NCBI GenBank assembly: GCA_038889235.1
Contig: JAWAHN010000002.1
Location: 104,356-136,355 of the forward strand
From: Candidatus Jordarchaeales archaeon
Lineage (GTDB): Archaea > Asgardarchaeota > Jordiarchaeia > Jordiarchaeales > Freyrarchaeaceae
Direction of reading: 5' to 3'
Length of the DNA: 32,000 nucleotides
The notes under the pieces were generated by a model that made no database searches, was not told where the DNA came from, and saw only the letters and a list, made by a program, of their open reading frames with translations. This document shows positions 5,638-19,877 of this stretch, one piece after another (position 1 is the first letter of the stretch; every line of letters starts with the position of its first letter). The translations under genes and the position numbers were made by a program.

Positions 5638-5727
5638 TGGCGGCCCCGAGGGGACTTGAACCCCTGAATTCCCGGCTTAGGAGGCCGGTGCCCTCTCAGG
5701 AACACATCCTGGCTAGGCCACGGGGCC
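5638..5727 (-). tRNA. tRNA-Arg(CCT) with genomic CCA and an 11-nt intron at 20a/21
   Basis: Acceptor GGCCCCG/CGGGGCC, anticodon stem CCGGC/GCCGG around CT-CCT-AA, T arm AGGGG-TTCAAGT-CCCCT. Removing 5695..5705 gives a normal D arm GCCTAGCCAGGATAGGGC. Confidence 0.95.
5695..5705 (-). other. 11-nt tRNA intron (bulge-helix-loop type)
   Basis: Intron GTGTTCCTGAG. Helix CAGG/CCTG; cuts AT|G and AG|A fall 2 nt 3' of each helix strand. Confidence 0.85.
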
Positions 5728-5840: not shown

Positions 5841-5936
5841 GCGGGCGTAGTCCAGCCTGGTCTAAGACGGCGGCCTGCCACGCCGCGGACCCGGGTGGTT
5901 AACAAAAACCAGGGATTTCAAATCCCGGCGCCCGCA
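5841..5936 (+). tRNA. tRNA-Gly(GCC) with a 21-nt intron at 53/54
   Basis: Acceptor GCGGGCG/CGCCCGC, anticodon stem GCGGC/GCCGC around CT-GCC-AC. Removing 5896..5916 restores the T arm CCGGG-TTCAAAT-CCCGG. Confidence 0.95.
5896..5916 (+). other. 21-nt tRNA intron (relaxed BHB)
   Basis: h GA/TC, H CCCG/AGGG (one G.A mismatch), bulges GG|T and AT|T, h' GGTT/AACC. Confidence 0.85.
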
Positions 5937-6813: not shown

Positions 6814-6972
6814 TTGCCTATCCCCCCACCTTTTCTGCTTAAGTGTTGGCGCTCTCCATTTGCTTTCTTTTTACTATAATTTAACTTTTATGTAGAATTT
6901 CATGTACCAGCAGCATTGAACGGTTAACGCTTGCACTGTTTGTCCAGGTTAATCAGTGCTCAGAGGAGGAAA

Positions 6973-6983
6973 GAAATATATAA
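6973..6983 (+). promoter_or_regulatory. TATA box of tRNA-Trp
   Basis: Purine-rich run then AAATATATAA, about 30 nt upstream of G1 (7010). Confidence 0.6.
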
Positions 6984-7028
6984 CTTGACGGCGAATTTCT
7001 TCTCTCGATGGGGGCGTAGCGCAGCTAG

Positions 7029-7043
7029 AACGTTTGTGGCGAA
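7029..7043 (+). other. 15-nt D-loop intron (18/19) of tRNA-Trp
   Basis: H AGCT/GGCG (one A.G mismatch), bulges AG|A and AA|G, h' AC/GT. Removal restores the invariant G18-G19. Confidence 0.8.
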
Positions 7044-7062
7044 GTAGCGCGGCTGGCTCCAG

Positions 7063-7141
7063 AAGCAATGAGAACAAACTGGTGCGCTGATTGGGGATGA
7101 TGACCTTCTGGAGCTTCGAGCCGGAGAGGAATCCCGGAAGC
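7063..7141 (+). ncRNA. Canonical 37/38 intron of tRNA-Trp encoding a box C/D guide RNA (predicted Cm34 and Cm39)
   Basis: C box ATGAGAA 7068..7074, D' CTGA 7087..7090, C' ATGATGA 7097..7103, D TCGA 7116..7119. Guides are complementary to GCACCAGTT and GCTCCAGAAG; the N+5 rule lands on C39 and C34. Confidence 0.85.
7127..7139 (+). other. 13-nt intron nested within the 37/38 intron
   Basis: h G-C, H CCGG/CCGG (perfect), bulges AG|A and AA|G, h' G-C closing GAAT. Its removal creates GGAG-GC|A, the missing 3' half of the 37/38 BHB. Confidence 0.75.
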
Positions 7142-7160
7142 ACCAGTTGGTCGTGGGTTC

Positions 7161-7178
7161 ACCCTCTCCGGGGCCTTC
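7161..7178 (+). other. 18-nt T-loop intron (56/57) of tRNA-Trp
   Basis: H GGGT/GCCT (two G-U), bulges TC|A and TC|A, h' CCC/GGG. Of the registers checked (53/54 to 56/57), only 56/57 gives a BHB. Confidence 0.8.
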
Positions 7179-7453
7179 AAGTCCCACCGCCCCCATCATT
7201 CTCTGCTTCCCCCAGGATTTTTCGGCTGCTTTATCTGTCTGGTGTGTAATCCTAAGTTTTGCTTTCAACTTTCGAATGCCCTCTCGACTTGCCACTCGTC
7301 TCTGAGACCACTTGCGGGCTACCCCTTCATTTAAAAAAGATCTGTGGTGGGCGGAAGAACGAGCTGTTCGGCTTCTAGGTGGGTTCGTGGAAAAAATTTT
7401 TATTCTGTTTGTTGGGAGTTCTTCAAGTTGGTGCCCGAAAAGGAGGGTTTGTC

Positions 7454-19550: not shown

Positions 19551-19877
19551 ATGGCTAAATCAAAGGAAAAAGGTTCTTCGACGGAAAATATGGTTTTTGT
19601 AGGTAAAAAACCGACAAAGTGAGGCGGAAGCCGCCCACGTCGAATGAGTTATGTTTTGGCGTGTGTAATGCAGTTTAGTCAAGGAGCCAATGAGGTGAGA
19701 GTCGTAGCGCGTGGAAGAGCGATTTCAAAGGCAGTCGACGTCGTGGAAATAGTGAGGCAGCGCTTCATGCCAGACTCCGTGAAACTAGGAGAAATTAAAA
19801 TCGGAACAGAAACTATTGGCTCAGGCGAAGACCAACGCAACGTGTCCACAATAGAGATACAGCTCGTCAGAGTGTAA
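19551..19877 (+). CDS. albA: DNA/RNA-binding protein Alba, interrupted by a 27-nt BHB intron; join(19551..19617,19645..19877), 99 aa
   Basis: Spliced product reads [17 protein letters not shown]...[17 protein letters not shown], a contiguous Alba signature. GGGAGG SD before ATG 19551. Confidence 0.93.
19618..19644 (+). other. 27-nt mRNA intron with a BHB motif in alba
   Basis: h C-G, H CGAC/GTCG (perfect), bulges AA|A and AA|T, h' GTG/CAC extended by GGCGG/CCGCC. Contains an in-frame TGA. Confidence 0.9.

Follow-up and report, generated by a model that had tools for sequence, protein, structure and literature searches.

A three-intron tRNA-Trp gene in a Jordarchaeia archaeon, with a guide-RNA intron and a candidate mini-intron nested inside it

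The DNA analysed here is a 32,000-nucleotide (nt) stretch of contig JAWAHN010000002.1 (assembly GCA_038889235.1) from a hot-spring Asgard (Jordarchaeia) archaeon; we call this whole stretch the window. Positions 7010-7195 of its forward strand read as a functional transfer RNA (tRNA) gene, tRNA-Trp(CCA), that is interrupted by introns in its D loop, its anticodon loop and its T loop. The anticodon-loop intron, which lies at 37/38, is by its sequence elements a box C/D guide RNA, and close to its 3' end lies a 13-nt segment with the appearance of an intron in its own right. We regard as secure the tRNA gene, the three introns that interrupt it and the guide RNA. For the 13-nt segment, we hold with modest confidence that removal is nested and ordered in two steps, such that these 13 nt would leave before the remaining 66-nt guide intron. 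The genus set used for comparison consists of the window and three further genomes (G001, G002 and G003). G004 belongs to a sister genus in the same family, and the further outgroups are a sister family (six genomes) and the genomes G319 and G033.

Gene structure and small introns

When the four exons listed in Table 1 are joined they give 74 nt which, with CCA added, ARAGORN calls as tRNA-Trp(cca), a regular cloverleaf with all four stems paired. Intronic bases make up 15 + 79 + 18 = 112 of the 186 nt. An earlier reading of the locus from its letters alone (the sequence-only reading) had placed introns of these lengths at 18/19, 37/38 and 56/57, and its coordinates and counts match the sequence. 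Bulge-helix-bulge (BHB) geometry is present at the D-loop, 37/38 and T-loop boundaries that yield the mature tRNA. In the first intron the central helix, GCU/GGC, has three of its four pairs; the bulges read AG|A and AA|G, and AC/GU makes an inner helix of 2 base pairs (bp). This intron ranges from 15 to 23 nt in length among orthologues, and the pairs are retained. The third intron has a complete central helix (GGGU/GCCU, 4/4), bulges UC|A and UC|A and a 3-bp inner helix, CCC/GGG. Its central helix is paired in all four genus members and the inner-helix sequences vary by species. Because the D-loop and T-loop introns are common to the sister family, they are older than the 13-nt insert.

The sequence-only reading had also warned that standard tRNA finders may miss this gene, and they do. 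ARAGORN does not detect the locus in the window, and it calls no tRNA when given the unspliced gene or the gene lacking the 13-nt segment alone. Rfam does not detect it at gathering score, nor does the Rfam tRNA model when run across the whole genome; an Rfam search of 6900-7300 at E<=10 likewise gives no tRNA match at the locus. Once both small introns are deleted, ARAGORN calls the gene with either the 79-nt or the 66-nt intron in place. This locus is the only tRNA-Trp gene detected in the genome. Upstream of it lies an A/T-rich box from which we infer an archaeal promoter (TATA box and B recognition element, TATA/BRE). The 15-mer is identical in three same-genus orthologues and reads AAAGAAATATATAC in G004, where one base is missing.

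Table 1. Coordinates of features at the tRNA-Trp locus, in window positions
Feature	Position	Strand	Basis
A/T-rich promoter-like box AAAGAAATATATAAC	6970-6984	+	about 26-40 nt 5' of tRNA start
Exon 1: acceptor 5' strand, D stem 5' strand, D loop through G18	7010-7028	+	sequence, ARAGORN
Intron 1, 15 nt, D loop 18/19	7029-7043	+	relaxed BHB
Exon 2: G19-G37, anticodon C34 C35 A36 at 7059-7061	7044-7062	+	sequence, ARAGORN
Main intron, 79 nt, position 37/38, bearing the box C/D guide RNA	7063-7141	+	sequence, orthologues
Box C, AUGAGAA, non-consensus	7068-7074	+	sequence
D' guide, pairs with 7140-7148	7075-7086	+	sequence
Box D', CUGA, consensus	7087-7090	+	sequence
Box C', AUGAUGA, consensus; invariant in all orthologues	7097-7103	+	sequence, orthologues
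D guide, pairs with 7056-7065	7104-7115	+	sequence
Box D, UCGA, non-consensus	7116-7119	+	sequence
GCC + GGAG, 3' strands of the main-BHB inner and central helices after removal of 7127-7139	7120-7126	+	outgroup order, pairing
Candidate nested mini-intron, 13 nt	7127-7139	+	insertion relative to outgroups; hairpin with BHB-like bulges
Exon 3: A38-C56	7142-7160	+	sequence, ARAGORN
Intron 3, 18 nt, T loop 56/57	7161-7178	+	BHB
Exon 4: A57 through discriminator A73	7179-7195	+	sequence, ARAGORN
T5 run 3' of the gene, putative terminator	7218-7222	+	sequence

A box C/D guide RNA in the 37/38 intron

Boxes C, D', C' and D occur in this order in the 37/38 intron, with two guides of 12 nt each. The fifth base 5' of box D faces C34 (7059) and the fifth base 5' of D' faces C39 (7143), an arrangement in which the two guides set both cytosines at the methylation position. 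Despite the non-consensus boxes C and D, the two sheared pairs remain possible (G7070.A7119 and A7071.G7118), and where U.U and G-C are customary there stand G7072-C7117 and A7073-U7116. The 18 bases that run from box C' through 7114 (ATGATGACCTTCTGGAGC) are invariant within the family. In G004 the target base U43 has become C and the D'-guide base that faces it has changed from A to G, so that guide and target have changed together. The boxes, the fifth-base rule, the invariant C' box and D guide and the joint change in G004 bear out the earlier proposal of an intron-encoded guide RNA. Hits to archaeal C/D families in Rfam are weak: sR40 scores 16.5 bits, and like it sR3, sR17 and further families stay below the gathering scores, which lie at 36-50.

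An archaeal pre-tRNA-Trp intron that guides methylation of C34 and U39 is a classical design (PMC4090602). The guide described from Haloferax volcanii and other Euryarchaeota (Omer 2000, Clouet d'Orval 2001 and Singh 2004, via PMC4090602) also sits at 37/38 of tRNA-Trp(CCA), also presents positions 34 and 39 of its own tRNA to the fifth base 5' of D and D', and is likewise built such that the guide-target duplex and the BHB are mutually exclusive (PMC4090602). The present example differs in several ways. It occurs in an Asgard host, and position 39 is C rather than U. Its boxes C and D are non-consensus, with Watson-Crick pairs at the U.U and G-C sites. The gene has two further introns at non-canonical positions and, finally, a hairpin is inserted within the 3' BHB strand of the guide intron itself.

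Conservation among relatives

The tRNA-Trp gene and its promoter-like box are kept in four relatives and in four metagenome contigs, three of the latter being identical to G002 or G003 and the fourth a near copy of G004. Exons are invariant across three same-genus genomes and differ at few positions in G004, whereas intron loops are variable. When we searched 400 genomes of the phylum for the pattern that links the anticodon loop to the D guide, it matched once per genome in all five family genomes and all six sister-family genomes, and also occurred in two other families. Contigs reached through the hydrolase gene that flanks the locus came only from genome assemblies at NCBI (GCA), and these carry the window's tRNA gene unchanged.

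These data bear on whether the locus could be a decaying pseudogene in a cell supplied by another, undetected tRNA-Trp gene. Most tRNA genes of this genome escape both ARAGORN and the Rfam model, so a second copy could be hidden. However, the exons and guide elements are invariant or co-changing across five species, the promoter-like box is retained, exactly one match to the anticodon-loop and D-guide pattern is found in each genome of the family, and the spliced product is a perfect cloverleaf. We therefore consider a pseudogene highly improbable.

The G002 orthologue (L152:1450-1661) has a further, apparent intron of 16 nt in its variable loop. The motif is BHB-like: AGUU pairs with AAUU as the central helix, and both bulges read GG|U. 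If nested excision is real, this copy would require five excisions.

A family-specific insert in the 3' strand of the main BHB

The outgroups (sister family, G319 and G033) have an uninterrupted 3' intron end, made up of the D box, GCC or GCCU, xGAG, two bases and A38; the BHB has a central helix with 3/4 or 4/4 pairs and an inner helix of 3-4 bp. Without positions 7127-7139 the window has exactly this layout (UCGA, GCC, GGAG, GC|A38), and by this comparison the 13-nt segment is an insertion specific to the family and lacking in the outgroups. Its length is 13 nt in the window, 16 nt in both G003 and G001, and 17 nt in G002, while G004 has 38 nt. Neither the 13-mer nor the hairpin with its flanks has a second copy in the genome beyond chance near-matches, and we rejected the idea that the insert is a mobile or repeated element on this ground.

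In the window the insert and the bases just upstream of it form a hairpin, with strands CCGG (7121-7124) and CCGG (7134-7137) and unpaired bulges AG|A (7125-7127) and AA|G (7138-7140). The same arrangement is found in all genus members, where C[C/U]GG pairs with CC[G/A]G and three unpaired bases follow each strand (AG|A after the first; AA|G, or AG|G in one species, after the second). With a hairpin and three-base bulges at this spacing, the cuts that the BHB rule predicts coincide exactly with the ends of the insert.

The sequence-only reading had claimed that the 37/38 BHB is imperfect as encoded, that the 13 nt have a BHB of their own, and that their removal creates a perfect partner for C32-C35. 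The first claim agrees with what we find, since GGAA (7136-7139) opposite C32-U33-C34-C35 makes three pairs and one A.C mismatch. So does the third: deletion of 7127-7139 yields GGAG-GC|A38, and the central helix CUCC/GGAG has four of four pairs in the window and in G001, G002 and G003 alike. The second holds in part. The central helix of the nested motif and its bulges are as described, and the helix is fully paired (4/4) in each of the four genus members. The helices to either side are another matter: the outer helix amounts to about 1 bp (G7120-C7141, followed by an A.A mismatch), and the inner helix is G7128-C7133 alone, or 1-2 bp in orthologues.

Nested or one-step removal

Several lines of comparative evidence give real support to a nested intron, namely the insertion relative to outgroups, the conserved hairpin, a compensatory change within it, and the decay of the as-encoded helix to two of four pairs in some species. 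While the nested helix and the post-removal helix are complete throughout the genus, the main central helix as encoded has 4/4 pairs in G001, 3/4 in the window and 2/4 in both G002 and G003. At the second pair of the nested hairpin the window and G001 have C-G, whereas G002 and G003 have U-A; no other two-sided change occurs among the 13 pairs in the four helices counted on the genus alignment. The C-to-U half of this change also converts an A.C mismatch to A-U in the inner helix of the post-removal BHB, and the G-to-A half abolishes one pair of the as-encoded helix. The loop of the hairpin, by contrast, varies freely in length and sequence, the 13-17-nt inserts having unrelated loops.

Geometry and folding point the same way, up to a limit. 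A canonical BHB, with 4/4 central pairs and an inner helix, exists only after removal, whereas the as-encoded motif is relaxed and has 2/4 to 4/4 pairs depending on species. A random insert would hit the one geometry by which GGAG-GC|A is restored in 0.4% of cases with Watson-Crick pairs and in 0.8-1.7% when G.U is allowed. The nested hairpin is part of the minimum-energy fold in three of the four species; conformers that include this motif are 2.5-4 kcal/mol less stable than the minimum, and those with the as-encoded main BHB 6-16 kcal/mol less stable. However, the guide-target duplex dominates every fold, so that folding cannot decide between the pathways.

The principal alternative is that the whole 79-nt intron is removed in one step, by cuts at G37|A7063 and C7141|A38 that leave the hairpin uncut. 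The motif recognized would then consist of the anticodon stem, the bulge GC|A, a helix of 2-4 bp with C32-C35, and a 5' site in a loop. The hairpin would have a structural role or be left over from a duplication of the 3' splice region, and it might delay the BHB while the guide acts. Helices of three of four pairs are evidently enough in the D-loop intron of this gene and in the main intron of the sister family, and thus the as-encoded motif of the window, which is no worse, cannot be called unspliceable; in G001 the as-encoded helix is already complete. Furthermore, two-subunit EndA enzymes of broad specificity accept hBH/HBh' motifs (PMC4090602). What one-step removal fits poorly is the situation in G002 and G003, where only two of four pairs are left, where the substitution that weakens the as-encoded helix is the very one that keeps the hairpin paired, and where the conformer with the as-encoded BHB is 12-16 kcal/mol less stable than the minimum-energy fold. 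As encoded, the motif also has no inner helix, and the conserved, bulge-like spacing on either side of the hairpin would go unexplained. We consider one-step removal possible but rather unlikely.

A number of observations nonetheless weigh against nested removal. First, neither side of the nested motif has the flanking helix of at least 2 bp that, on one side, goes with a strict BHB or a relaxed hBH/HBh' motif. Its outer helices, both of about 1 bp, are weaker than those of every comparator examined, each of which has at least one better helix. Their near absence also counts in favour of one-step removal. Second, a bare 4-bp central helix is frequent by chance in this intron, at 2.2% of site pairs with G.U allowed and 0.3% with Watson-Crick pairs; an unrestricted scan for such helices gives hundreds of chance motifs and is uninformative by itself. 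Third, the covariation is one event in four related sequences, and 87 of 500 shuffled controls reach the observed score, so the compensatory change is statistically weak as support. Fourth, CCGG is palindromic and lies within a near-direct repeat, CCGGAG ... CCGGAA, which in G001 is a perfect 6-nt CCGGAG repeat. Because a palindrome within a direct repeat can give rise to pairing and spacing at once, through duplication, it is only the later U-A change that argues for selection on hairpin pairing. Fifth, for the window and G001, removal brings the main BHB conformer no nearer to the minimum-energy fold.

Finally, the sister genus does without a nested motif. In the 38-nt insert of G004 we found no nested BHB with a credible central helix, either in any register of its 8-nt repeat or in a general scan. 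About 11 bp can form between this insert and the box C region, and the insert supplies a new GGUG strand beside GC|A38, a downstream helix on which G004 apparently relies; the arrangement looks like a one-step solution. In both G004 (L155:1453-1665) and its metagenome relative (L167:1632-1844) the 38-nt insert lies at the same site and is flanked by an 8-nt direct repeat, GCACCAGC, which duplicates the 3' splice junction and anticodon-stem strand.

It is also conceivable, but very unlikely, that the two pieces leave in the reverse order. CUCC would pair with GGAG at 7123-7126, cuts at G37|A7063 and AG|G (7128|7129) would release a 66-nt guide intron first, and the 13 nt then left at 37/38 (7129-7141) would be removed as a mini-intron through CUCC/GGAA. 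A CUCC/GGAG motif with bulges AG|A and AG|G is indeed present in the sequence, and the sister-family GAGCCAGAGAG|A also aligns with the window's GAGCCGGAGAG, which would put the insert at the old 3' splice site. Yet the first step would have no outer helix beside its 3' cut, the helix of the second step has only two of four pairs in G002 and G003, and the conserved, covarying hairpin would be both without a role and in competition with the motif.

Nested removal with the 13 nt going first thus remains our preferred reading. The sequence-only reading had gone further and called ordered splicing obligatory. This does not hold up against the three-pair helices that serve elsewhere, the complete as-encoded helix of G001 and the lack of a nested motif in G004. 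A one-step route may run in parallel, and for that reason the order is probable but need not be obligatory.

tRNA genes, EndA and other minimal introns in the genome

The genome comprises 2.14 megabases in 8 contigs and is 95% complete. ARAGORN reports 14 tRNA genes, of which only four have no intron, one of these with undetermined identity, and the Rfam tRNA model scores above cut-off at 12 places. Two paralogues of EndA are encoded, of 196 amino acids (L168:1192-1782, +) and 195 amino acids (L169:1474-2061, -). They are 33% identical, and each carries PF02778 at the N terminus and the catalytic domain PF01974; the second has no histidine in the aligned catalytic stretch. This suggests a broad-specificity, two-subunit EndA made up of a catalytic and a structural subunit.

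Two other introns provide examples of minimal motifs in the same genome. The tRNA-Val(GAC) gene contains an intron of only 14 nt, whose central helix is 4 bp long and whose inner helix is 1 bp, with AC|A and AA|G as bulges. The alba gene is interrupted by a 27-nt BHB intron (window 19618-19644, +) in which CGAC pairs with GUCG as the central helix, the bulges read AA|A and AA|U, the inner hairpin is long and the outer helix has 1 bp; its removal joins ...VFVGKKPT to MSYVLA... in frame. These minimal motifs, apparently in use here, lend plausibility to the nested intron.

The bulges of the small introns examined (7029-7043, 7127-7139, 19618-19644; C1:695039-695129) are A-rich and alike, with AG|A, AC|A or AA|A on the 5' side and AA|G or AA|U on the 3' side. 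This similarity may stem from what the enzyme prefers or from common ancestry.

We also note that several ARAGORN calls (tRNA-Tyr, Lys, Ala and Gln) include 'introns' of 47-96 nt that are compound in appearance. Just upstream of the tRNA-Trp gene lie two further tRNA loci, at window positions 5638-5727 (-) and 5841-5936 (+), one an ARAGORN call with undetermined anticodon and one the sole Rfam tRNA hit in the window. Being longer than a plain tRNA, both probably carry introns.

Discussion

The sequence of events we propose begins in the ancestor of the family, whose main BHB would have gained a short segment within its 3' strand, after GGAG and ahead of the 3' bulge GC|A38. In the genus, this insert and the upstream CCGG (or CUGG) would fold as a mini bulge-helix-loop motif, with cuts at the ends of the insert. 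A two-subunit EndA would cut the introns and a ligase would rejoin the exons, the 13-nt piece most likely being excised first. The freed GGAG could then pair with C32-C35, and the ancestral, canonical BHB of the 66-nt guide intron would form. Processing would take four excisions in this species and five in G002, and excision of the whole intron in one step through the relaxed as-encoded motif may proceed alongside.

A more elaborate version of this scheme treats the hairpin as a checkpoint. By sequestering two bases of GGAG it would keep the main BHB blocked, and the pre-tRNA would hold its guide-target conformation for as long as the intron-encoded C/D particle needs to methylate C34 and C39. 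The guide intron could be spliced out only once EndA had taken away the 13 nt. We offer this as speculation and think it improbable.

Much of what is found here elaborates known phenomena, and the locus is not a new kind of system. The sequence-only reading had judged the combination of four excisions with an intron-encoded guide RNA exceptional, but each of its parts has been published, including up to five interruptions in a tRNA gene of this class of Asgard archaea (bioRxiv 10.64898/2026.10.13.758758), nested introns (PMC3978253, PMC3728597) and the tRNA-Trp guide (PMC4090602). In Asgard Jordiarchaeia and Atabeyarchaeia, 92-95% of tRNA genes contain introns (PMC11291895). For the focal families, bioRxiv 10.64898/2026.10.13.758758 gives a mean of 2.2 interruptions per tRNA gene and a maximum of five, many going undetected by tRNAscan-SE, and reports two EndA paralogues. 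This genome, which is of the same lineage, is like the published ones in having multiple introns at non-canonical D-arm and T-arm sites, many genes that finders miss, and two EndA paralogues. The passages of those papers that were read or searched count interruptions relative to the mature tRNA, and word searches of them find neither tRNA-Trp nor a C/D guide intron, and no introns that are nested or ordered.

The claim that ordered removal of nested introns is established in archaea agrees with PMC3978253 and PMC3728597, which cite it as known for BHB introns in Crenarchaeota. In the nested pre-tRNAs of Thermoproteales (Sugahara 2007/2008 and Tocchini-Valentini 2009, as cited in those two papers), as in the gene described here, a pre-tRNA contains several BHB introns, and the canonical BHB of the last one becomes available only after another piece leaves, which implies an order. 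Several differences stand out. The candidate inner intron here sits within a guide-RNA intron and not between exon segments. Moreover, its motif is nearly without outer helices, a relaxed one-step route is possible, and the order is a prediction. A mini-intron physically within the tRNA-Trp guide intron may be what is novel about this locus.

The locus has several implications for Asgard biology. First, the tRNA-Trp intron guide, best known from Euryarchaeota, now extends to Asgard archaea. Second, annotating the tRNA sets of these organisms needs methods that are independent of motifs. Third, the candidate mini-intron lies at the conformational switch between guide and splicing structures, which raises the question of whether methylation is timed before splicing. 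Were the checkpoint true, a prokaryote closely related to eukaryotes would gate the splicing of one intron by that of another inside it, and would couple this to RNA modification. Finally, if nested excision is real, genes with no insert, with a 13-17-nt hairpin and with a 38-nt insert free of the motif would form a natural series for studying the minimal motifs of EndA and the order of its cuts. Spanning the sister family, the genus and the sister genus, such a series could show how BHB introns originate, even inside other introns.

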